Positions 1-12,251 are shown, counted from the first letter of the stretch. The stretch: DNA of 64,000 bases from Chloroflexota bacterium (GCA_040389445.1 JAZJZX010000004.1:36696-100695), one strand, 5' to 3'. The notes: generated by a model from the letters alone, not told the origin. Made by a program: numbers and translations.

Positions 1-804
1 CGCGACGCCACCGCCACCGAAGTCCTCGAACACAACGAAGTGGCGGACGAGATCGAGAAATCGGCGCTTCTCGAACACGCCTTCGAGTACGACCTGAAGC
101 TCACTCAGCGACGCCGGCGCGTCACCGTGCCCTGCGATCGTCCGCCACGGCTTGAACCACTCGCGGCCCGCGCCGATGACGCCAATCCGCGCTTGCGTCC
201 CGTCTGAGGCGACGAGTGCCGCGTTGTACGCGAAGAGCGTTGGGATCTGCGCCTGGTACGTCTCGAGTTGGTGGAACGCCGACCAGATCGTCGTGTTCTC
301 GTCGGCCGGATTCTTCAACTCGATGACCGCCAGTGGCAGGCCATTCAGGAAGACGATGACGTCCGGCCGGCGCGTGTGCTGGCCCTCGGCCAGGGTGAAC
401 TGGTTGACCGCAAGCCAGTCGTTGTTCTCCGGGTCGTCGAAGTCGATCACTCGCGCCTGCGCCCCTGCGATCGAGCCGTCCGGTCGGCGGTACTCCACGG
501 TCACGCCGTCGACGAGCATCCGGTGGAGTGCGTGGTTGCGATCGAGGAGCGTCGGGGCATCGGTCCGGGTCAGCTTCCGGTATACGTCGTCGAGCGCTTC
601 TGGCGGGATTGCGGGGGTGAGGCGTGAGAGCGCCTGGCGGAGCCGGCGCTCCAGGACGACATCGCGGTATCCGGGGTCGGTGCGCTCGGCAGCGGGTTCG
701 CCGAAGGCAATATCCGGCCCATGGAGGACCACGTACCCAAGCTCACCGAGCCATGCCAGGGCAGCATCCTCGACTACCGATTCGGTGAACCCAGCGCCGG
801 TCAC
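1..804 (-). CDS. hsdR: Type I restriction enzyme R subunit (HsdR), N-terminal part. The gene continues beyond the window start.
   Basis: The minus-strand translation from the GTG at 804 reads [29 protein letters not shown]...[19 protein letters not shown]...[32 protein letters not shown]...[10 protein letters not shown]. This is the conserved HsdR N-terminal nuclease/DNA-binding region (compare EcoR124I 'ILVNGLPLVQIELKK'). The frame is open to position 1, and the GTG start overlaps the upstream gene's stop (GTGA). Confidence 0.85.
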
Positions 805-1676
805 TCGGCAGTCTCCCGGGCGCCGTCGAAGGCACGAAGGGCGATCCGAACTGTCTCGACGGCCTCGTTGCGGAGACGTGCTCGCGCCTCAGGATCGCCC
901 GTCACCTCGAGAAACGCCGCGTACGCCGTGGGCGCGTCATTGCGAGCTTCGCTGAACCGGTCGCGAAGGAGTGCGAGCGCCTCGGCGGCAAGAGGATCCG
1001 CGACAACCTGGCTCACGGCCATTTCCCGACCAGAGCCCTCAGGTCCATCCGGGTGGTTCGCGAGGATCCAGATGATGTCGTACGCGTCCTTGTCGTGGTG
1101 TCGATCGAAGAAGGCCGAGATCTTCAGGATCACGAACGGCAGCAGACCGGCCACCCGCACTCTGGCAGTGGCCACGCCGCCGCCGTCGAGCCTCTCGGCA
1201 GCGATCTCCACGAGCTTGTAGTCCAGGCTCACGAGATGGGCTCCATGGACATTGAACGCCTGGAAGCGCGACCCCGACCCAGACCGAGGTTTGAAGCTAA
1301 CACCCGGTTCGACCTTGTCCGTGTCGCAGATGAATTCGAGGATCAGGCTGACGCCGTCGGCCTCCTTGCGCCATCGGAAGTCCGGGTCGTCCACGAGCGG
1401 AGCCTGGCGGAACCCGGCATCCAGGAGGTTCCGCGCCAGCGTCTCGTACGATTTGGAGGTCGGGTCGTCCACCATGAGAATCACGGCAAGGTCGACGTCT
1501 CGGGATCCCACGTGAGCCGGGGCCTCATCGCTGGCGCGACCGTACAGGTACCGGGGCACGAGCCCACCCACAAGATAGAGCCGCCGTCCCCAGAAGCCGG
1601 CGTTCCCGATGACCGTGACGAGCATCCGCTCGCACAGGTCGGTAATGGTCGGGTCGTAGTCCCCCGCGCTGGCCAT
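801..1676 (-). CDS. abiEii: AbiEii/AbiGii-family nucleotidyltransferase, a type IV toxin-antitoxin / abortive-infection toxin-like protein.
   Basis: 291 aa. It has a GG...GSRDVDLAV nucleotidyltransferase motif and the C-terminal K[19 protein letters not shown] signature ((R/K)DhYDh) typical of PF08843/DUF1814. It follows the putative AbiEi gene with a 2-nt spacer, and its stop overlaps the hsdR GTG start. Confidence 0.6.
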
Positions 1677-1678
1677 CG

Positions 1679-2761
1679 TCAGATCCCCAGAACCGACTCG
1701 CGGAAGAACTGCGCCTGCTCCTTGCCACGGCGCGGGTCCCGGAGGGAGTCAAGGTAGATCCGCGTGTCCGCGGCAAGCCAGATCCCGCCCACCACGCGGC
1801 GGAACCGCAGCTCCGCGTCATCCGCACCCTGGACGATCACGAGGTTGGAGCCCTCATCCGTCTGGCGAGCCTCCAGAGCGTGCAGCGCATCGCTCGCCGA
1901 GATGCCGGCGGTCACGCGAACCTGGGTGACCGGAACCGAGGTGAGTGCGGGAGCCAGGATCGCCGCGGCGGCGATCCCCGTGATCGCGTGCGGGATCCCG
2001 GCCCCAACCAGCCGCTCGGAGAGCAGCGCAGCGGTTCGGGCGCCGGGTCGGGTAAGCACGAACGCCGCCGTGCGCCGAGCGCCCCGCTCCTTCTCCTCTT
2101 CGGACCAGAGGTCAAGAAGCGCCCCGGGGTTTGCTATCCGGCGCACCTTGCGGGGGCCGGTTCCCTCGGCGGCCAGAATGGCCGCAGTCTCCAGGCGGGC
2201 GAGCACTCGATGGGCCAGCCCGCTGGACACGCCGGCCTCAGCGGCAATGTCCGCCACGCGCCACGAACGATCCCGATCGAGGAGGAGCGCCTGCGCAATG
2301 AGTCCCGCCTTGCCGGCCAGGCGCGCCTTCACGTGCTCCCGATCGACGATCACTGCGGCGGCGCCGAACGATCCGGTGCGGACGAAGACGCCCGGAAGGC
2401 GGATGGAGGCGTTCCCAAGCCCATCCAGGTACGCGACCCCGTTCGCTTCGAGGATCTGCCGCGCACCTTCGCTCGTGTGTTCAGCGACGAGGATGAAGTC
2501 GCGGCCCTTTGGCGTTCGACGAGCCAGTGCCACGATCGCGTGGGCATTCGCCGCATCTACGCGCCGCTTCGTCTCGAGGACGATCGGGCGAGGCCGGCCC
2601 TCGATACTAATCTCCGCATCTGGCCGAGTTGCCGCGTCGAAACCCGGCTGCGCCCTGATGGCGCTCAGCGCCCACGCTTCGAGAGGGGCGGCAATCTTCA
2701 CTGGAAGTTGGTTCTTCACTGCAGCAGTGAAGATACCTGTTGGAGTGAATATGTCAACCAC
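1679..2761 (-). CDS. abiEi: Putative AbiEi-like antitoxin / transcriptional regulator with an internal HTH, partner of the AbiEii-like gene.
   Basis: 360 aa with a GTG start at 2761. It contains a helix-turn-helix (SWRVADIAAEAGVSSGLAHRVLARLE), and its stop is 2 nt from the AbiEii start. The gene pairing and size match AbiE systems. The 5' ~60 nt are markedly AT-richer than the surroundings. The family assignment rests on context plus weak sequence features. Confidence 0.45.
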   Translation of the reverse strand: MVDIFTPTGIFTAAVKNQLPVKIAAPLEAWALSAIRAQPGFDAATRPDAEISIEGRPRPIVLETKRRVDAANAHAIVALARRTPKGRDFILVAEHTSEGARQILEANGVAYLDGLGNASIRLPGVFVRTGSFGAAAVIVDREHVKARLAGKAGLIAQALLLDRDRSWRVADIAAEAGVSSGLAHRVLARLETAAILAAEGTGPRKVRRIANPGALLDLWSEEEKERGARRTAAFVLTRPGARTAALLSERLVGAGIPHAITGIAAAAILAPALTSVPVTQVRVTAGISASDALHALEARQTDEGSNLVIVQGADDAELRFRRVVGGIWLAADTRIYLDSLRDPRRGKEQAQFFRESVLGI

Positions 2762-2963
2762 TGTCGGCAGGTCGCCAGCGGCTCTCGATCCGCTTGACTG
2801 CCTGGACCGACTCGTCGAAGTCCTGCTCGACGGGCGACGGAAGCGACGCGAGATGGGCGGAGGAGCACTCGGATTCGGACTCGGCCCACGCCACCGCGAC
2901 TTCGTGCGAGACCATGCCGGCTTGTCCCGCAGACCCTTCGAGGGCCGTGGCGCGCGCGCAGGC

Positions 2964-4799
2964 TCATCGCCGCAGAACTCTCACCCGGACCGGTCCCCGC
3001 TCCTCGAACCGCCCTACGAAGTCCGAGTCATCGGCGATGAATCCCCCCAGGTCGTAAACGAGGAACAGGGCGCTTCGCCCCCGATCCGCGTACTTCGGGA
3101 TGTCGGCGAGCATCTCATCAGTCACTTTCCGCACGTCCGACTTCATGCGAACGAGCTTCGCCTCGACGAACAGGTCCGGCTCGTCGGCGGCGTCCCCCTG
3201 CGTCGATCCGCTGAAGTCTGGTCTCGTTCCGACCTGGCCGAAGCTGACGGTCGGGAACTCGCGGTCGAGGTTCATCTTCGCTGCGGTCTGAGCGACGTCG
3301 ATCTGCCTCTGGAGCTCGTCCTCGTTGGATGGCTGGTGGCCAGCGAAGCCTTTCCGGATGGCCGGCGTCACGACCTCGGCGATCCGGTCAGCGAGTCGTT
3401 CCCACGGCTCTCGGCGGTGCTCAAGCTCGCCAATCCTTCTGAGAAGGCCCCCCGTCGGCAGCTTGCCACGTACATAGTCGGGGTGGTTTCGCGTCCAGAC
3501 GGCCTGGTACGCCCCATCGATTTGCTCCGCGTGGCGCTGGACAAGCGCGTAGATCCTTGTGATCTCGTCATTCACATTGCCGGCGACTTGGGCGGCCCGC
3601 CACACGTCCTGCTCCCGCGCGAGATCATCCGGGGTCATGTCGAGCGTGGTCCACGCGAAGCGCAGGTACTGCTCCGCATACATGGCCGGCTCGCCATCTT
3701 TCAACGGGTCCCGAAACAAGTCCACCTGATGCTGCGGACGCTCGATGTCGTCATCCCACCCCGCCGCGATGCCGGCAAAGCGACGGTCGACGCACTGCGA
3801 GCAGGTGCCACAGTGGGGCTGGATCGGCCGCCGGAACATGCCACGCGCGCATGAGACCGTGCGGTGAGCCAAGGCTTCCCCGCCCCGAGTGATGGCTTCC
3901 CTAATCACGTCGGCCTTGGTGCTGTCGGCAAAGGGCGTTTCGACGGTGACCTCGATACCGAGGGCAACGAGGAGCTGGCGATAGAGCCAGAGCGTCTTGG
4001 GGTGCGTCGTCCGCGAGCGCATGGCTCCGACCGACTGGGCCGACTGGGCGAGGTTCAGGCTTGTCACCCCATTTTCCGGCACGATCAACCGATTCAGCCC
4101 GGCCTGCATCGCCACGGCGACGCCAAGGCCGAGGTAGAGCACGCCTCTCGACCGCTGGGTGTAGTCCTGGGCATCGCCCGCTCCGGGACCCCGGACGGTC
4201 TGGAGCGTGGGATTCGGAAAACGCCAGCCCGCCTTCGTCGTTCTGAGAACTTCGAGCACTCCATCCTTGAAGCTCCGGCCCGTGTTCGTCGTCCAGTGGC
4301 TCGCGAGGATCGGCCGTTCGCCGTCGTCGACGAGACGAAGCGCGCCAGCGAGCGAGTCAAGGCCGCCCGAGAAGAGCGAGACGCACGTTGGATCATCGCC
4401 GCCGGCCGCAACAAGATCGAGCTTGAGTTGCTCGTCGGCCTGGCCCCGGCGGAATTCGAATGTCCAGGAGTCGTCTGTCGCGAACTCGAGCACTGCCGTC
4501 AACTCGTCGCGGACCGCGTTCCACCGGTCTGGCTCGTGAACGGGCACGTGCAGCGCGAGCTCCCGGCGCCAGTTCTTGGCGAGCGGATCCCGCTTCCGCG
4601 CCCGCGGCACAGCTCCGTCTGCGAGGAAAACGTAGGCGGCGACAGTCAACAGGTCCCGGACCAGGGGCAGGAGTGTCCTCGCGGCGGACTTCTCGACGCC
4701 GGTGACGTTGAGCACGACCTGGCGGTTTGGCGGTGATGGATCGAGCGTCACGGAGGCGCCCGACACGGTAGGCGGTGGTCCGCAGTGGATGACCGTCAT
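2964..4799 (-). CDS. QueC-like PP-loop ATPase (7-cyano-7-deazaguanine-synthase-like fold) with a unique N-terminal extension and a C-terminal PD-(D/E)xK restriction-endonuclease-like domain. Candidate defense effector or modifier.
   Basis: 611 aa. It has the PP-loop VSLFSGGLDSLAGA (SGGxDS) and a QueC-type zinc site C-x12-C-x2-C-x2-C (SCARGMFRRPIQPHCGTCSQCVDRR). The C-terminus carries ...TRPDFSGS...DEPDLFVEAKLVR, giving a PD...EAK nuclease motif. Its ATG overlaps the stop of the upstream 254-aa gene (ATGA). Confidence 0.6.
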   Translation of the reverse strand: MTVIHCGPPPTVSGASVTLDPSPPNRQVVLNVTGVEKSAARTLLPLVRDLLTVAAYVFLADGAVPRARKRDPLAKNWRRELALHVPVHEPDRWNAVRDELTAVLEFATDDSWTFEFRRGQADEQLKLDLVAAGGDDPTCVSLFSGGLDSLAGALRLVDDGERPILASHWTTNTGRSFKDGVLEVLRTTKAGWRFPNPTLQTVRGPGAGDAQDYTQRSRGVLYLGLGVAVAMQAGLNRLIVPENGVTSLNLAQSAQSVGAMRSRTTHPKTLWLYRQLLVALGIEVTVETPFADSTKADVIREAITRGGEALAHRTVSCARGMFRRPIQPHCGTCSQCVDRRFAGIAAGWDDDIERPQHQVDLFRDPLKDGEPAMYAEQYLRFAWTTLDMTPDDLAREQDVWRAAQVAGNVNDEITRIYALVQRHAEQIDGAYQAVWTRNHPDYVRGKLPTGGLLRRIGELEHRREPWERLADRIAEVVTPAIRKGFAGHQPSNEDELQRQIDVAQTAAKMNLDREFPTVSFGQVGTRPDFSGSTQGDAADEPDLFVEAKLVRMKSDVRKVTDEMLADIPKYADRGRSALFLVYDLGGFIADDSDFVGRFEERGPVRVRVLRR

Positions 4800-5560
4800 G
4801 AGGCGCGCGTGATCTCGTCCGCGATCTTCCGCATCGCCACCGCGGCCACGCCTTCAGTCCGATCCAGGCCACCGAGCCATTGACGCTTCGAGTACCAGGC
4901 GCCGGCGAAGTCCTCGACGATTCGAGCCGCCTCGGATGCGTAGCGATCGACGCCATCGGTGAACAACTGAATCTCTGCCTCGGATCGGAGCCGTCCGTCG
5001 CCCCCGAGGAGATTGGCGGCCTCGTGGTCGGTGAAATACCGGAGCGAGCGGGAGAGGAGCCGGGCAAAGAACAGGTGGGCGAGCTGCGCGAAGCCTCGCT
5101 CGGTTGAGAACGAGTGGTAAGCCTGCCGCGCATCGTCCAGCCCGGAGAGGAAGAGGCTGCCGGTCTGCGACGTGATGGTCCGGGTCAGCGACTCCTGGAG
5201 AGCGCCGAGAGCGAACTCCGTGAAGATCGTTCGCTGACTCGTCGGTCCGAACCGGTTCTCGGCCTCGCGCAGGACGTTCCCGAGAAGACCCAGGGCATCT
5301 TCGTTGCCCGTCACGGTGAAGCCGTAGCCGCGCAGGGCTTCGGCGAAGTCATCGCGACGTGACGCATCGGCCAGGAGCGCCATCACCCGGAGGCTCTCCA
5401 CGACGCCTGGGTCTTCGCCAGCCGCACGATAAGCCTTCTCGGCTGCGCCAACGACAGCGCGCGCTACGGTTCCGACGTCCACGTCAGGATCGTCCATGAG
5501 CCGGACGACGTGCGACCAGCGTCGCGTCTTAGGGAGCTCGCCGAGGCGAATGTGCCCCAT
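4796..5560 (-). CDS. Hypothetical all-alpha protein of ~254 aa, translationally coupled between hsdS and the QueC-like gene. Possible QatB-like partner or substrate.
   Basis: The ORF has protein-like composition. Its ATG at 5560 shares one base with the hsdS stop (TGATG), and its stop overlaps the QueC-like ATG (ATGA). No recognisable catalytic motif. After removal of the initiator Met the N-terminus is M-G-H... Confidence 0.5.
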   Translation of the reverse strand: MGHIRLGELPKTRRWSHVVRLMDDPDVDVGTVARAVVGAAEKAYRAAGEDPGVVESLRVMALLADASRRDDFAEALRGYGFTVTGNEDALGLLGNVLREAENRFGPTSQRTIFTEFALGALQESLTRTITSQTGSLFLSGLDDARQAYHSFSTERGFAQLAHLFFARLLSRSLRYFTDHEAANLLGGDGRLRSEAEIQLFTDGVDRYASEAARIVEDFAGAWYSKRQWLGGLDRTEGVAAVAMRKIADEITRAS

Positions 5561-6896
5561 CAACCGACCCCGTGGCTTTCGCGCCGCGACCCGAGTGTGC
5601 GCACGGAGCGTTCCTCTTGACTTCGGGAGATGTGCAGTACGCCCGAGATCAGGTCTGGTAGCAGCGCGTCGCGCAGGGCGGCGAGAGTTCGGGATTGCGC
5701 AGTCATCATCGACGCCTGTTCGAGAAGACGGTGGACCACGGTTCCAAAGAGCCGGGCAACTTCGGACGACGGGGACACGGCGAGGAAATAGGACAGGGAC
5801 TCTGCTGGCACCCGCTGTCGACCGCTGGAGCCCGTCATGCTCTGGATCGCGAACTCCCGAAACTCATCGCTACGCGCCAAGCAGTAGGCGTACTCGGTCG
5901 GAAGCGGGGGCTCTGCGCGGAGGACGATGTACTCGGTTGAGCCCCAGCCAACCTGGCCAGGCTCGAGGAAGTCAACGTATGCAGTCTTGCCGTTCTCGAG
6001 ACACGGCGTGATCCGGGCGACCAACGTATCCCCGTTCTGGAAACGCATTCCCGAACCGAAGGGGCGATCAACCACAGCGTCTGGCGAGTGGCCGCGAGTC
6101 GGCATGTTGGCCATGTCCAGGTATGGCGCGACAACGCCCTTGCGCAATGAGCGCGGCGGGTTGACCTTCACGACCGCAGGCAGCGGCGCCAATCGCCAGC
6201 CCGTCGGGATCTCCCCAAGCTCCGAGTCCTCGAAGGAACCCGGGAACAAATCGGCGAGGTGGGGTGGGAGGCCGGGGTCGCGGCCTTCGGACTTGGCGCG
6301 GACGGGGTCGAAGTCGACGAACCAGGACTTGAAGAGGGCCCGCGCGATCGCCTCGAGGGCCTCGCTCATCCGGCGGTTCAGCTCGATCTTGTCGTCCAGC
6401 GTGCCGAGGATGTGGGCGATGCGGCGCTGCACCCTATCAGGCGGTAATCCGAACCGGAAGCCAAGTAGCCGTTCCTTCGACAGGTTCATGATCGCCGTGC
6501 CTACTGCGTACGCTTCGATGCGCTCACGGAAGTCGGCCGATTGCAGGACGTAGCCGAGGTATGCCGGGTCAATCCGGTCAGGTTTTGGCCGGATTGCGGC
6601 ACAGAATGCTCCGACGCACCCGTCCCACGTTTGGCGCAATGGGGCGAGACGACCAACAGCCTTGCGGCTACCACTCGACATCGCAATCACGACGTCGAAA
6701 CGGCGCAAGTGCTGTGCTTCTCGGACGAGACGCGTCGGGACGTAGATGACATTGGCGAGATCCAGAGTGTGATCCCCGATGTTCGTGGCGCGCAGCAGTG
6801 GTACCGCGCCCGTGGACTCAGTTGCGAGCTCGCTGGGACGGAAGTTGACGCCACGCACAAGATCGGCAACTTCGCCGAGCTGAACCTCACCCTCAG
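5560..6896 (-). CDS. hsdS: Type I restriction-modification specificity subunit (HsdS).
   Basis: The sequence [24 protein letters not shown]...[16 protein letters not shown]...[26 protein letters not shown]... shows two target-recognition domains plus conserved HsdS repeats. The likely GTG start at 6896 overlaps the hsdM stop (GTGA). The ORF track's longer 542-aa version has a low-complexity N-terminus that overlaps hsdM and is probably not translated. Confidence 0.85.
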
Positions 6897-8443
6897 TCAC
6901 CGAAGCCGAGCTCCCGCAGGTTCGCATCGATGAGCGCGTCGAGCCGCTGGCCCTCGGCGACCTGTTCGCGTAAGGTCGCGCCAAGCCTCGCCATCTTCTC
7001 GTCGAACGGCTCGGCGTCCTCCTCGGTGGCGGCAGCGCCGACGTAGCGGCCGGGGGTAAGCACGTGACCGTGCTTGCGGATCTCGTCGAGCGGGACGGAC
7101 CGGCAGAAGCCGGGCACGTCGGCGTACTCGCCGGCGCCCTCGTCGCCGCGCCAGGCGTGGTAGGTACCGGCGATCGTCGCCACGTCATCGTCGGTCAGTT
7201 CGCGGTGCGTTCGATCGACGAGCGAGCCCATCTTCCGGGCGTCGATGAAGAGCGTCTCGCCGCGGCGGTCGCGGAAGCGGCCGTTGCGCCGGTCGCGGGC
7301 GAGGAACCAGAGGCAGACCGGGATCTGGGTCGAGTAGAAGAGCTGGCCCGGCAGGGCGACCATGCAGTCGACGAGGTCAGCCTCGATGATCGCCTTGCGG
7401 ATCTCGCCCTCGCCCGACTGGTTGGTCGACATCGAGCCGTTGGCGAGGACGAAGCCGGCGATTCCGGTCGGCGCGAGATGGTGGATGAAGTGCTGGACCC
7501 AGGCGAAGTTCGCGTTGCCCGCCGGCGGCTCGCCGTACACCCAGCGCTTGTCGCCCTTCAGGAGTTCGCCCCGCCAGTCGCTGTCGTTGAAGGGCGGATT
7601 GGCCAGGACCCAGTCGGCCTTGAGGTCCGGGTGGCGGTCGTTGTGGAAGGTGTCGCCGTGGGCGATCTGGGCGTCGATGCCGCGGATCGCGAGGTTCATC
7701 GCGGCCAGCCGCCAGGTCGTGTAGTTGGACTCCTGGCCGTAGATGCTGATGTCGCCGAGCTTGCCCGCGTGGGCCTCGATGAACTTCTCGCTGCTCACGA
7801 ACATCCCACCCGAGCCGCAGCACGGGTCATACACGCGGCCCTTGTAGGGCGCCAGCATCTCGACGAGGATCCGGACGACGTGCGACGGCGTGTAGAACTG
7901 GCCGCCCTTCTTGCCCTCGGCGCTCGCGAACTGGGCGAGGAAGTACTCATAGACCCGACCGAGCGTGTCCTTCGCCCGGTCGGCGGGGGCTCCCAGCGCG
8001 ATGTCGGAGACGAGGTTGATGAGCTGGCCGAGGCGCGCCTTGTCGAGGCCGGGCCGGGCGTAGTCCTTGGGCAGCACGCCCTTGAGGGTCGGGTTGTCCC
8101 GCTCGATGGCGGCCATCGCGTCGTCGACGAGGGTGCCGATCGTGGGCTGGGGAGCGCTCGCCTTCAGGTGCGTCCAGCGGGCTTCCCTGGGGACCCAGAA
8201 GATGCTGACGGCCCGGTACTCGTCGGGGTCCTCGGGGTCGGCGCCAGCGGCGCGGTCGGCCTCGAGTTCGGCGTGCTTCGCCTCGAAGGCGTCGCTGATG
8301 TACTTCAGGAAGATCAGGCCCAGGACGACGTGCTTGTACTCGGCCGCGTCCATGTTGTTGCGCAGGGCGTCGGCGGTCTGCCAGAGGCGCGCCTCGAAGC
8401 TAACGGGAGCGGCGGTGTCCGGGCGGCCGGAGCCCCTTGCCAT
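6893..8443 (-). CDS. hsdM: Type I restriction-modification N6-adenine DNA methyltransferase (HsdM).
   Basis: 516 aa. The N-terminus reads [39 protein letters not shown], it carries the NPPFN catalytic motif, and it has a SAM-binding fold. Its ATG shares one base with the upstream DUF262 gene's stop (TGATG). Confidence 0.95.
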
Positions 8444-10728
8444 CAGATCCCCCCTCCAGCGACATCCGCAGGCCCCGCGTACCCCACAGCCACGAGCCGC
8501 TGCCTGGCCCGGTGGAGCGCCTCCTCGGAGAACAGGCCCTGAAACTCGGGACGAAGCGCCTGCGCTTCAACGGACAGGTCGAGGCGACCCTTTGACCAGA
8601 GTGCGACGAACCCCTCAGATGGGTCCGTGGCCTGTAGGAGTCGCTTGGCCGTTTCGAGACCTCCAATATCGGAGACCATCGACAGGAACCGCGACGCGTT
8701 GTATCCCGCCTCGCGCTTGGCTCGGTCGTGAACCTCGAGCATCGCCTGGTGGAAACGTTCAGCGGCAGCGGTTGAAGGCTCCGGCGCGACCTCCTCGGCT
8801 GAGGCAAGCTCCGGCGGCGCCATGAGGTAGCGCTTGAACGCGTCGGGCGTGGTGAAGACTCGGTATCCCAAGGCCGCGAGTCGACTGACTGCGGCGTCCT
8901 CGGCCTCGAACTCGAAAACGACTGGGTCGCTCAGACCCTCCTGGACTCCGTTCGGCCAGACGAGATCACCTACGATAATCAGCTCCTGAGTCTCGGGATC
9001 CGCGATCTCCTGGTCCACGTTGGGTTGAGAAATACCTTGTTGCCCAATCCAGGCCAGCAGCTCCGTCACGACTGGGTCCATCGCCTCCGCGACGTCTGGG
9101 GCGGCGCCAAGCTCCAGCTCGAGCGCTGTGTCGACGGGTGCGCCGGCCGCAGGATGGAGGAGATTCTCGAGCACGTGATTCGCTGCATCCGCCAGAAGGG
9201 CGCGCCTCGCCGCCAAAAAGTCCCGATACCGATCCACTTCCCACAACTGCTCGTCCATCGGGATCCACTGTGACTCGAGAGCCCCGGGATAGTCTGTGGC
9301 GATCTTCCGGAAGTAGTCGCGCGGCGCGCTGTCACTGATCGCGATGTTCGTGTCCTTCGTCAGGAAGCAGAAATTGGCGAGCGCGTTCACTTCGGATCGC
9401 TGGTAGTCGTGGCGATACAGGTGGGCCTTCGGGAAGATGTGGTGGATCTCGAGGGCTGCCCCCTTTCCGAGCATTCCGGCGGACAGGACTGGAAATGGTG
9501 CGCCCCAATCCCGTGCCCCTTGCATCCGCGTGAGGAGATACAGCATCGGGTAGAAGCGAGCGCCAAGGCTCCAGCCGGAGAAGTCAACGTCCCGAACGGT
9601 TAGGTCACCTCGCGAGAGCCGGATCTGTTGGATCAGGCGATCGATCGACGCCTCCGTACCATCGACGAGGTCCAGGTCCTGGTTCAATACCGTCTCAACA
9701 GAGCCGGCAAATCGGCCCCACAGGAAGCTCTGGATGTACCAGTACAGCAGCTTGTCCTGCTCGATCGCGCTGTGGAACTTGCCTCCGCGTGTCGACAAGT
9801 ACCGAGTCATCACCGGGAACGCGTACCGCCCACCAAGGACGCGGTCATGGTCCAGTCCAAGACGCGCGCCAATGACGTTCAGCAAGACATTCGCGGATTT
9901 CGTCGCGTTCTTGAGACCCTCCTGGAATTCCGATGTGGTCACTCCAGTAAGGGCGGCGAACTTCGCTTCACCGGCTACGATCGTGGTGATGTTGCGGAGA
10001 AGCCAGTCGAGCTGGAAGTGGAAGCCACGGTCCGACCAGTACCGGAGGACCTTCTTCATCTCGTCGCGTGCGTCGGGCCACGACGCGCAGATCCGGGCGA
10101 GGGCGAGATCACCTTTCGAGAGCTTGGTGCCCCCACTGTTCACTCGATTGAAGATGTCGACAACCACCTCGATCGTCTTGTCCTCACCGACGACCTTCTC
10201 GACGTGGAACTCAATGTCTTTGACAGCGTCAAGCCGCGTCAGCCGATTGACGTAGTCCCCGGCGCGCAAGCTCAGGTCCGGGTTTTCGAAGACAGCCTTG
10301 ATCGACTCGGCGACCCCCTCCGTCATCAGCTGCGTGACGCTGATCCAGCGGGGGTTGCCCTTCATCTTTGCCGGCGCGTAGAACTCGAAGACCTCGTCCT
10401 CGATGTCGAAATGCAAGCCGGTGAAGGCGCTGGCGTCGCCGTCGAAGAACCGCGGGGCACGGCCGCGGATGATTCCGTACAGGGTCGTGACGCGTTGCTG
10501 GCCATCAAGCAGAAGGTCAACAGTGCCGGCGGCAAGCATCCCGCCACCTCGCACGTCAGCCACCTCGGTCGGCGTCACCCAGACCATGAGACTTCCGACC
10601 GGATACTTCCGGTAGAGGGACGTCATGAGCCCCCGAACCTGGTCGCGGTTCCAGACGTAGCCACGCTGGAACTCGGGCAGGGCGATGGATCCAAGGTCGA
10701 TCTGGCTCAGGATGGTCCGGACGTCCAT
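8443..10728 (-). CDS. GmrSD-family Type IV restriction enzyme-like protein (DUF262 ParB-like NTPase domain plus DUF1524 HNH/His-Me nuclease domain).
   Basis: The N-terminal motif is [16 protein letters not shown] (the DUF262 QR-x-x-W motif) and the C-terminal motif is [13 protein letters not shown] (DUF1524/HNH-like). The likely start is ATG at 10728, with AAAGGA 5 nt upstream; the ORF track extends to 10890 through an unconvincing N-terminus. The gene is translationally coupled to hsdM. Confidence 0.8.
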
Positions 10729-10807
10729 GCGTATCCTTTCTGCAATGTCACGTAGGGTACGGCGCGTCGTGCCGGACACACGGATTGTCCTGACGAAGCG
10801 TCGATCG

Positions 10808-11776
10808 TCATTCGCGGACGTCTCCGTCTCGTCTTCGGTCGAATAGGATTTCGTAATCGCGCTCGGTCCAAAGCTCACCCCATCGATCACCTGTCTCGAT
10901 CGGCGCGATGTCGTTGCCGATCAGTCGCTCAACGTCGCCGCCGTAACTAGAGATGTTGTAGAGGCGAGTCTGTACGCGGAGCATCGCGCGCAGGCCATCC
11001 GTGACGATCGGCAATCGCCGATCGAGGTCGACCGCAAGAAACTCGACCGGCAGGATGTGACCGAACCGCTCATTGAAACGCCGGGGGGCGTCCATCGCGT
11101 ATTGGTATGAGCCCGTTACGCGAAAGACTGATAGTCGGCCCCACTCTGGCAGGTTCGGAGCCACGACAACGTCACCGAGCCGCATTCCGTCGTGTGCCGA
11201 TGTTCGCATCCGCCGCGACCGCCACGTCATCCGCTGCTCGTCGCTGAGCTCGCCTCCACGACGGACCACCTCGGCGACCACGTCGAGGTTCATCTCGGGG
11301 TTCCAGCCCCAGCCCTGGCGAAGGCGTCCGCGTTGGGCCTCGGCCCAAATGTAGGGCCGCTCCCAGGGGCTAGTTCGCATCACCCAGTACCCGCGACCTG
11401 CGAGCCCCGGAGTTCCCATTGGCCTCGCGCTGACGGGCGCGCGGGAGCCCGCTCGGGGCGCCGATTTCGGGCGCCCGAGTGCTGCGAGAGCACCGTCGAC
11501 GTCCCCAGCGAGATGCGATGGGAGCTCCTCCCGGTCGACCGTTCCAAATACACCGAGGACCGCATTACGAGTAGCGGGATTGCGCCCTATTCGCTCGAGC
11601 ACACGGATCGCGAACGCTGCAAGTCGCTCGTCGCCGAGCCAATCAGTCATCGCATCGATAGCCATCTCGCCGTGTGCAGCGATCGCATCACGAAGCTCGA
11701 TCCGCGCCATCGAGTCAGCCTCTCGGGCACTCGCGAGCAGGTCGTCCAGTGCTGCTGTGGTCATCGGTAGCCGCAT
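10808..11776 (-). CDS. Hypothetical 322-aa protein first in the defense array: a helical N-terminal half, a low-complexity linker, then a YW-rich C-terminal domain that could be a PUA/EVE-like modified-base reader.
   Basis: Complete ORF with varied amino-acid composition (W/Y/F rich: GYWVMRTSPWERPYIWAEAQRGRLRQGWGWNPEM...). It lies 80 bp upstream of the GmrSD-like gene on the same strand. The fold assignment is speculative. Confidence 0.4.
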   Translation of the reverse strand: MRLPMTTAALDDLLASAREADSMARIELRDAIAAHGEMAIDAMTDWLGDERLAAFAIRVLERIGRNPATRNAVLGVFGTVDREELPSHLAGDVDGALAALGRPKSAPRAGSRAPVSARPMGTPGLAGRGYWVMRTSPWERPYIWAEAQRGRLRQGWGWNPEMNLDVVAEVVRRGGELSDEQRMTWRSRRMRTSAHDGMRLGDVVVAPNLPEWGRLSVFRVTGSYQYAMDAPRRFNERFGHILPVEFLAVDLDRRLPIVTDGLRAMLRVQTRLYNISSYGGDVERLIGNDIAPIETGDRWGELWTERDYEILFDRRRDGDVRE

Positions 11777-12251
11777 AGTGAACGCGCCCCGGACTCCCGC
11801 CGTCTGGTCGCCGAGGACATTGCGTGTTCCTGGTGCACTGGGGCCATCACGCTGGAATCATCCCGACGGGCCGTGCCATCTCTGGTGTCACATCGAGCAC
11901 GATGTCCCGCGCGGCGACCTTCTCATCGTGTCGAAGTCGAAACAGCAGCGTGCGCAGCGCCTCCAGCGCCTCGGCCGGCGTCGAGACGTCGATGACCTCC
12001 GGCGCTCGACCACGAGCCGCTCGGCCCTCGCGCCGGCGCGCTCATCAAGCGATTCCACCACCGGGGCGTCAGCCATCAATCCCAACCCTCCCCTCGTCGG
12101 GTTCGGTGCCACGCGCGCGCTCCCGGGGAGTGTAGCGGGGCGGGGTGGCGCGATGCTGGCCTCGTGGAGCAAGGCCTCGCCAGGTCCGGGTTACTCGAAC
12201 GGTGCCACGGACGTTCCTGGACGCGCCCAGCGTCTGCGGGGCCGCAACCCG

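Follow-up and report, generated by a model that had tools for sequence, protein, structure and literature searches.

A candidate QatBC-type gene pair with a fused nuclease inside a Type I restriction-modification operon of a Chloroflexota bacterium

The gene pair

The DNA considered here is a stretch of 64,000 nucleotides (nt) from a Chloroflexota bacterium (GCA_040389445.1 JAZJZX010000004.1:36696-100695). We call the whole stretch the window and count all positions from its first letter. Positions 2,964-5,560 hold two overlapping genes. One codes for a partner protein of 254 amino acids (aa). The other codes for a 611-aa protein in which a predicted enzyme of the QatC family is followed by a predicted PD-(D/E)xK nuclease. 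QatC is one component of the QatABCD anti-phage system, reportedly described by Gao et al. in 2020. The pair lies within a Type I restriction-modification (R-M) operon, and we argue that it is probably a reduced, self-contained relative of the QatB/QatC couple. Its features are listed here with the evidence for each. Open reading frame is abbreviated ORF, hidden Markov model HMM and AlphaFold 2 AF2.

4796-5560, minus strand: partner gene, 254 aa, ATG start (ORF and junctions)
5516-5560, minus strand: partner codons 1-15, conserved tail at the N-terminus, Gly2 being the predicted acceptor (81 loci and AF2)
2964-4799 (stop included), minus strand: 611-aa QatC-family enzyme with PD-(D/E)xK nuclease (ORF and family scans)
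4380-4670, minus strand: residues 44-140, QatC-type N-terminal extension (aligns to residues 58-150 of QatC 9vlk)
3732-4379, minus strand: residues 141-356, PP-loop ATP-pyrophosphatase core (PDB QatC, PADLOC, NCBIfam, invariant columns)
3345-3731, minus strand: residues 357-485, helical region common to all long QatC-like proteins (linker HMM and AF2)
2967-3344, minus strand: residues 486-611, PD-(D/E)xK (REase_DpnII-MboI-like) nuclease domain (Pfam, invariant columns, AF2)
3216-3218, 3162-3164 and 3156-3158, minus strand: codons of D528, E546 and K548

An earlier note on this DNA, made from the sequence alone, had described both genes as translationally coupled, and both junctions are confirmed in the sequence. 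The stop codon of hsdS overlaps the ATG of the partner gene as TGATG (...GGT TGA TGG GGC...). The partner's own stop overlaps the ATG of the 611-aa gene as ATGA (...TCA TGA CGG...).

The 611-aa protein and the QatC family

Residues 44-356 match QatC chains when searched against PDB sequences with phmmer (9vlk_A, E 5.4e-37; 9zee_B, E 1.1e-32). The PADLOC QatC model also recognises the protein (E 3.4e-57). Conservation was examined in an alignment (A2) of 22 homologs reaching down to 28% identity, and "invariant" refers to this alignment. The extension residues D49, D61-x4-R66, W77-x-R79 and D110-x-W-x3-F116 are invariant, except that D110 is conserved in at least 90%. The earlier note had called the first ~130 aa unique. 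This does not hold, since residues 44-140 match the N-terminal extension of QatC in 9vlk, in 9zee and in the NCBIfam and PADLOC QatC models.

The PP-loop reads S144GGLDS149. It is followed by R216-x-R218-x3-Y222, E242-N-G244, S262-R-T-T-H-P267 and P289-x4-T294-K295, where P289 is nearly invariant (at least 90%). The zinc site is C317-x12-C330-G-x-C333-x2-C336, and D338-R-R340 comes after it. Every motif published for the QatC cluster is present, most of them invariant and the rest nearly so. The published list for this cluster (cluster 2) includes the D63 equivalent, SGGxDS, CGxCxxC and RR (Libby et al., PMC13329287). The PP-loop, zinc and nuclease residues are not there by chance, because they are invariant in homologs as distant as these. 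The conservation check proposed in the earlier note therefore comes out in its favour for the PP-loop, the zinc ligands and the PD-(D/E)xK residues alike. Its description of the motifs as QueC-type needs amending. The PP-loop and the C-x12-C-x2-C-x2-C site are real, but the first cysteine spacing is x8 in QueC and x19 in E. coli QatC (PMC13329287), and the x12 found here is neither. The spacing between R66 and W77 likewise differs from E. coli QatC.

In the substrate pocket, Ser262 and Thr264 align with QatC T278 and T280. QueC and Cap9 have Tyr/Asp at these positions and QatC has Thr/Thr (PMC13279940), and therefore the pocket is of the QatC type. Two other identities were tried and rejected. 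With the canonical QueC model TIGR00364 the protein reaches 26.7 bits, where the cutoff is 150.3, and E. coli QueC has no tblastn match to the gene at E<1, which together exclude canonical QueC. The Pfam QueC match (E 9.9e-8) is limited to residues 281-340, the zinc region. Cap9 was rejected since the Tyr/Asp base-reading pair is absent and neither Pfam and PADLOC scans of the neighbouring genes nor tblastn with Tgt found a CD-NTase or a TGT-like gene such as Cap10. It had also been asked whether the protein might fall in an unrelated PP-loop family. Profile searches place it with QatC instead. Judged by sequence, it is a QatC-family enzyme, not a QueC or a Cap9.

The nuclease and its replacements

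A helical region separates the core from the nuclease. Its HMM matches a QatC-like ORF in 85 hits, with or without a nuclease domain. The QatC C-terminal extension that binds QatB probably has its counterpart within these residues (357-485), an equivalence that we infer. The nuclease motif is R-P-D528 ... V-E546-A-K548, and the invariant residues of the domain are E493, E514, D528, E546, K548, D583 and R610. The earlier note had pointed out this PD...EAK motif, and its invariance bears the observation out, as does Pfam PF18742 (REase_DpnII-MboI), which is found in the precomputed annotation of most homologs. On the 611-aa protein itself PF18742 gives E 0.0015, below the gathering score. An AF2 model of residues 357-611 (predicted local distance difference test score, pLDDT, 87.1) has the order helix-strand-strand-helix-strand-helix-strand around the motif residues. 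This predicted order fits the alpha-beta-beta-beta-alpha-beta core of PD-(D/E)xK enzymes. The best Foldseek matches of the C-terminal half model in the PDB were the Shedu nuclease (E 0.028), MUS81 (0.39) and R.BspD6I (0.67), none of them significant.

The genome scan described below found the nuclease domain in 28 of 80 loci. The remaining long QatC-like proteins end differently, in a domain of ~220 aa or in helix-turn-helix (HTH) domains of the Sigma70_r4, GerE, HTH_20 and Trans_reg_C types. Since DNA-binding domains occupy the C-terminus of these relatives, the variable module appears to be generally directed at DNA. As far as the sequences indicate, the C-terminus can hold any of several exchangeable domains, of which the nuclease is one. 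A rough neighbour-joining tree does not support a monophyletic nuclease-fused branch, and the fusion either dates back to the ancestor or has several origins. The same tree puts 12 canonical QatC sequences in a clade of their own, apart from all the long QatC-like proteins.

Some details of these relatives may be recorded. The ~220-aa domain ends most non-nuclease long QatC-like proteins (L057, L058, L048, L067, L064, L032, L071, L063, L085, L040, L001 and others; alignment A7). Its consensus is …KG..YI..LLA.P.R … GLGGR.R…RDAVRNAI.RAI…YDKPLA.HLK.SI..G....Y.P…W, and it has no match in Pfam or among PDB sequences. An OmpR-type Trans_reg_C or Sigma70_r4_2 domain is at the C-terminus of P0067, P0077, P0084, P0099, P0105, P0113, P0114, P0120 and P0057. 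At one locus, in an NC10 metagenome-assembled genome (MAG; L009, 8405-11593), the QatC-nuclease gene follows hsdR-hsdM-hsdS-partner and appears disrupted. The core HMM matches two ORFs there (8405-8686 and 10094-11593) with another ORF inserted at 8711-9982, which may be a pseudogene or an insertion.

The partner protein

The AF2 model of the partner is all-helical, as the earlier note had supposed. It has 11 helices (pLDDT 84.9; predicted template modelling score 0.85), and residues 1-12 are unstructured. This unstructured end is nevertheless the most conserved part of the protein. Its consensus is M-G-H-x-R-L-G-x-L-P-x-T-x-x-W. A start codon followed by Gly2 and His3 is found in 81 of 81 loci, so the Met-Gly start that had been remarked on in the single sequence is universal there. 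R5 is conserved in 88%, G7 in 89%, P10 in 96%, T/S12 in 90% and W15 in 93% of the loci, with L9 within the range 84-96%.

Neither the single sequence nor the profile has a meaningful match in Pfam (a local copy without the QatB model PF28083), PADLOC (E<=10), NCBIfam or PDB sequences. An indexed search returned 60 homologs. When 1.84 billion representatives were searched exhaustively with HMMER, 1,756 clusters matched at E<=1e-3, of which 1,268 reach E<=1e-10. Almost every member is 255-265 aa long and matched from residue 1. By these searches the partner is a member of a real, unannotated family.

Pairing and distribution

The genome scan covered one genome per species and located partner and QatC-like genes with HMMs built in this analysis. 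It found 80 loci in more than 15 phyla, including Chloroflexota, Planctomycetota, Bacteroidota, Nitrospirota and Verrucomicrobiota. The nearest relative, at 60% identity, is in a Chloroflexia MAG. At about 78 of 82 genome loci the next gene upstream of a long QatC-like gene is a partner gene, and the two overlap by 1-14 nt. Viral contigs from IMG/VR have the same pairing in 24 of 25 loci, and some of these contigs are proviral. Overall the two genes stand together and overlap in about 100 loci.

The neighbourhoods are those of defence and mobile genes. Distant members are located after a BREX operon, and others adjoin OLD, Mrr and reverse transcriptase (RT) genes. One member adjoins Lamassu-like genes together with hsdM and hsdR, one is cargo of a Tn7-like element and one stands alone. 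Among 96 immediate neighbours of nuclease-type loci, R-M and defence domains make up most of the Pfam families, with some transposases. KAP NTPase, TatD and queuosine genes are not among the commonest of these families. The neighbourhood check proposed in the earlier note is thus answered in favour of a co-occurring pair that has R-M, defence and mobile neighbours, not queuosine or Dpd genes.

Association with Type I R-M was scored when at least two of hsdM, hsdS and hsdR lay within 10 kb. The nuclease-type loci number 31 in this comparison, being those of the genome scan plus the window plus loci fetched in other look-ups. Type I R-M neighbours are present at 6 of these 31 and at 1 of 78 other loci (Fisher p 0.002, for loci that are not phylogenetically independent). 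The six include a Nitrospirota MAG (L007), the NC10 MAG mentioned above, a Chitinophaga (L024) and a Bacteroidia MAG (L030). At locus L005 the stop codon of the pair overlaps the start of hsdS. Most members have no R-M neighbours. Embedding in Type I R-M operons is recurrent, not obligatory.

The surrounding operon

All the relevant genes of the window are on the minus strand and form one tightly packed, co-directional array of eight genes. The six that accompany the pair are as follows.

8443-10890, minus strand: GmrSD_N/DUF262 gene, 815 aa (Pfam 2.2e-26; PADLOC HEC-05 1.8e-43)
6893-8443, minus strand: hsdM, Type I methyltransferase (Pfam N6_Mtase 6.9e-106 and HsdM_N)
5560-6900, minus strand: hsdS, Type I specificity subunit (Pfam Methylase_S; PADLOC Specificity_I 3e-112)
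1679-2761, minus strand: 360-aa winged HTH (wHTH) protein (weak IclR HTH match, E 0.0019)
801-1676, minus strand: 291-aa AbiEii-like nucleotidyltransferase (weak AbiEii match, E 0.0011)
1-804, minus strand: hsdR N-terminus, GTG start, continuing beyond the left edge of the window (translation judged by eye)

The GmrSD_N/DUF262 gene is directly upstream of hsdM, and their junction is another TGATG overlap. Its product is probably a type IV (modification-dependent) restriction enzyme of the same operon. Genes hsdM and hsdS overlap by 8 nt, with hsdS starting at the GTG at 6900 and not at the ORF start at 7188. Downstream of the 611-aa gene a gap of 202 nt precedes the 360-aa gene. The latter is separated from the 291-aa gene by 2 nt, and the two form a second embedded pair (801-2761) between the QatC-like gene and hsdR. 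By sequence this pair looks like an AbiE-type abortive-infection or toxin-antitoxin module. The stop of the 291-aa gene overlaps the GTG start of the next gene (GTGA), a putative hsdR whose translation resembles typical HsdR N-termini. The operon setting claimed in the earlier note is therefore correct, with hsdM and hsdS upstream, and the operon runs on to the AbiE-like pair and hsdR.

Upstream of the GmrSD-like gene a 322-aa gene (10808-11776) has a weak PADLOC PDC-S02 match only. The guanine plus cytosine content is 64-66% in the first 12 kb (1-12000) and 68-72% in 12001-64000. The lower value across the defence array is consistent with horizontal acquisition. The window has no tRNA gene and no obvious integration site, and no integrase was identified at the edge of the array within it.

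The earlier note had found no other queuosine or tRNA-guanine transglycosylase (TGT) genes in the window. This agrees with tblastn searches of the window with E. coli QueA, Tgt, QueC, QueD, QueE and QueF, which gave nothing below E 0.07 (FolE was not among the queries). Pfam and PADLOC scans of the neighbouring genes had no CD-NTase or TGT-like gene. Pfam, PADLOC and NCBIfam scans identified neither QatA (KAP NTPase) nor QatD (TatD) among the eight co-directional genes.

A QatBC-type module

We argue that the pair is best read as an autonomous QatBC-type anti-phage module that is carried as cargo in a Type I R-M operon and in which a fused nuclease replaces QatD. On balance we hold this to be the probable reading. 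The earlier note had suggested a minimal QatB/QatC-like pair with its own nuclease, and homology, conservation, pairing and context all support it. The domain identities, the conserved catalytic residues, the strict gene pairing and the defence and mobile context are observations on the pair itself.

The comparison with canonical QatBC (9ZEE/9ZEF and 9VLK/9VLL) is close at several points. The enzyme has the N-terminal extension, the PP-loop core, the zinc site and all QatC-specific motifs. An all-helical partner of ~250-300 aa is encoded directly upstream with a stop/start overlap. The partner has an invariant Met-Gly start followed by a conserved Pro and Trp, and its Gly2-His3...P10/W15 parallels the MGTS...P16/W18 tail of QatB. 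That tail is essential for defence (PMC13279940), as are Gly2 of QatB and the PP-loop (PMC13279940, PMC13376578). QatB and QatC form a 1:1 complex and alone defend against lambda-vir (PMC13279940, PMC13376578). A peptide from the N-terminus of QatB that bears NDG has been detected by liquid chromatography-tandem mass spectrometry (PMC13639016). Because of the homology and the synteny, we propose an enzyme-substrate relationship like that of QatB and QatC. The partner would lose Met1 and expose Gly2, and its tail G-H-x-R-L-G-x-L-P-x-T-x-x-W would enter the active site of the PP-loop enzyme. The enzyme would adenylate a carboxylate substrate with ATP, which by analogy with Cap9 and QatC may be 7-carboxy-7-deazaguanine, and would ligate it to the Gly2 amine. 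The fused PD-(D/E)xK domain would take the place of QatD, a separate TatD nuclease, as the DNA-cleaving output. Its activity might depend on the complex or on whether the partner is modified.

The differences must be noted too. QatA and QatD are absent from the operon of the pair, and the enzyme is ~150 aa longer than QatC. The pair is spread over many phyla, while described Qat loci are ~92% Pseudomonadota (PMC13434339). The same 2026 survey found that 98% of Qat loci are qatABCD and the rest truncations. In the QatC cluster only about a third of the genes have qatA and qatD next to them, and the others were left undescribed (Libby et al., PMC13329287).

Several points weigh against our reading. 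The NCBIfam QatC model NF041925 matches the enzyme with E 6.9e-62, but the score of 209.6 bits is under the equivalog cutoff of 280, and a canonical plasmid QatC used as control scores 527.9 bits. Three partner proteins have no match to the QatB model NF041924 at E<=10, where a QatB control scores 210 bits. None of the 60 partner homologs has a precomputed Pfam domain, whereas PF28083 is found on every QatB hit. The partner profile matched no QatB chain among the PDB sequences, which include such chains. The tail before helix 1 is ~12 residues, compared with 30-90 in QatB, and residue 3 is His and not Thr. Since sister branches have HTH or other domains in place of the nuclease, the C-terminal domain may serve to target DNA and not to kill as an effector. 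For the pair itself, complex formation, modification of the N-terminus and its chemistry, gating of the nuclease and anti-phage function are what we infer from QatBC. Even for QatC the substrate and the 7-deazaguanine chemistry are proposals, and the papers on it report no in vitro reconstitution of the reaction (PMC13279940, PMC13639016, PMC13376578).

The question of whether the partner is a QatB deserves another line of reasoning. QatB sequences were taken from ten canonical qatABCD plasmid loci and 120 database homologs. They share the MGTS...LIPSW tail, 30-100 residues long, and the models PF28083 and NF041924. An hhalign comparison of 133 partner with 130 QatB sequences gave Prob 72%, E 3.4e-5 and a score of 42.8. 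The two align collinearly through the globular domain (partner 58-254, QatB 103-272), and small profiles fell into this register too, at Prob 9%. With reversed profiles the score is 22-23, and none of 30 block shuffles exceeds 23.5. Fold searches with the partner gave no QatB match, in libraries that probably predate the QatB entries. The profile-profile link to the globular domain of QatB is suggestive. We conclude, from profiles and alignments, that the partner is a remote homolog or close analog of QatB and lies outside the QatB family as now defined. The QatB-like partner of the earlier note would then be a remote relative and no recognised member of the QatB family. A side observation on the QatB set is that the qatB starts of three plasmid qatABCD loci in RefSeq (L092, L095, L096) are annotated ~100 codons too short, and upstream extension restores MGTS. 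Misannotated qatB starts have also been noted by others (PMC13279940).

Other explanations

One can imagine a scenario where the pair belongs to the R-M system itself. PrrC in EcoprrI is a precedent for a guard of Type I R-M. Here the pair would be tied to HsdMSR and latent while R-M is intact, and an anti-restriction protein would release the nuclease as a second defence. The pair does resemble PrrC in its setting, being co-directional with the hsd genes, translationally coupled to hsdS and placed between hsdS and hsdR. The excess of Type I R-M neighbours at nuclease-type loci, in unrelated lineages, and the overlap with hsdS at L005 point the same way. However, the compared loci are not phylogenetically independent, and hsd genes are not adjacent at about 80% of the nuclease-type loci, which include close relatives (58-66% identity). 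The position relative to hsdR, hsdM and hsdS varies, and there is no sequence relationship with PrrC. Type I R-M loci are also hotspots for unrelated defence cargo, and this window has an AbiE-like pair and a GmrSD-like gene as well. We consider a guard unlikely. Still less likely is a toxin-antitoxin-like abortive module, in which the partner inhibits the fused nuclease and the PP-loop domain senses ATP or other nucleotides. The tight overlap of a small upstream gene with the gene for a nuclease-bearing protein is what such a module would have, and QatD of canonical Qat is reported to be inhibited by nucleoside triphosphates (PMC13434339). Yet the full QatC catalytic set (PP-loop, D49, R-x-R, T-H-P and zinc site) is invariant and the partner is most conserved at its extreme N-terminus, and both facts suggest that catalysis acts on this N-terminus. 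Branches without a nuclease have partners of this family too.

The fusion of a QueC-family domain to a restriction-type nuclease, together with the DNA-binding HTH domains of sister proteins, could instead suggest a modification-dependent restriction enzyme. Its QueC-like domain would read 7-deazaguanine in phage DNA and direct the nuclease, with the partner as regulator, and phages do use 7-deazaguanines to counter restriction (PMC13329287). However, the Tyr/Asp base-reading pair is replaced by Ser262/Thr264, the ATP-activating residues are conserved although a pure reader would have no use for them, and such an enzyme would not account for the partner's invariant N-terminal Gly. This reading is very improbable. 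A metabolic or DNA-modifying QueC, making preQ0 for queuosine or acting in Dpd-type DNA modification with R-M, was considered and rejected as hardly credible. Some sources do name homologs "7-cyano-7-deazaguanine synthase", and the Pfam QueC match is real. That match is confined to the zinc region, and the TIGR00364 and tblastn results given above are against a QueC. Tgt, QueA, QueD, QueE and QueF were not found in the window by tblastn, nor are they among the commonest neighbour families. Even E. coli QatC fails to complement a queC deletion (PMC13329287).

Cap9-CdnD of type IV CBASS (antiphage signalling based on cyclic oligonucleotides; 9NTO), a case of N-terminal deazaguanylation, is the other known system to compare. 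It too has an ATP-dependent QueC-family enzyme, an adjacent partner gene and a Gly2 acceptor, which for the present pair is a prediction. Cap9 is a minimal protein of ~185 aa with Tyr/Asp base readers, unlike the Ser/Thr, QatC-type enzyme here. The present partner is not a CD-NTase, and Cap10 (TGT-like), Cap11 and a cyclic-nucleotide effector are all missing.

A bolder form of our QatBC-type reading would make these loci a large, undescribed sister family of Qat that numbers ~1,300-1,750 clusters at 50% identity. The C-terminal module (nuclease, HTH or the ~220-aa domain) would be exchangeable and directed at DNA, and conjugation at the partner's N-terminus would control it. The nuclease branch would also be linked functionally to Type I R-M and act as a reserve once restriction has been disabled. 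We put this forward tentatively, as a possibility that we would not bet on.

Novelty and significance

A QatC-family enzyme with a fused nuclease and an MGH partner is a variant of Qat that we found described nowhere in the literature. Searches on QatC, QatB, QueC-like proteins with nucleases and deazaguanylation returned only work on QatABCD and type IV CBASS, and therefore the architecture is new as a Qat variant. The suspicion in the earlier note that it was undescribed is in line with this. PADLOC 2.0 and NCBIfam 20 miss the partner entirely. The enzyme is partly recognised, by the PADLOC QatC match and by NCBIfam below its cutoff.

Four papers of 2026 concur in placing QatBC at the centre of Qat immunity. 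They leave unsaid the ligand of QatC in vivo and the mechanism that stops the phage. The pair reduces the system to two proteins and hard-wires a recognisable, predicted DNA-cleaving output to the enzyme, and a tail of ~12 residues should be easier to map. With the pair, Qat-type immunity would reach beyond the Pseudomonadota, where most of it is described, into many phyla, environmental lineages among them. That the nuclease branch is inserted repeatedly in Type I R-M operons raises a link between restriction and QatC-type signalling that can be tested. If the sister-family reading is true, these loci would allow the QatC-family ligand, and how the modification restricts phages, to be studied with two proteins and an output that can be assayed directly.

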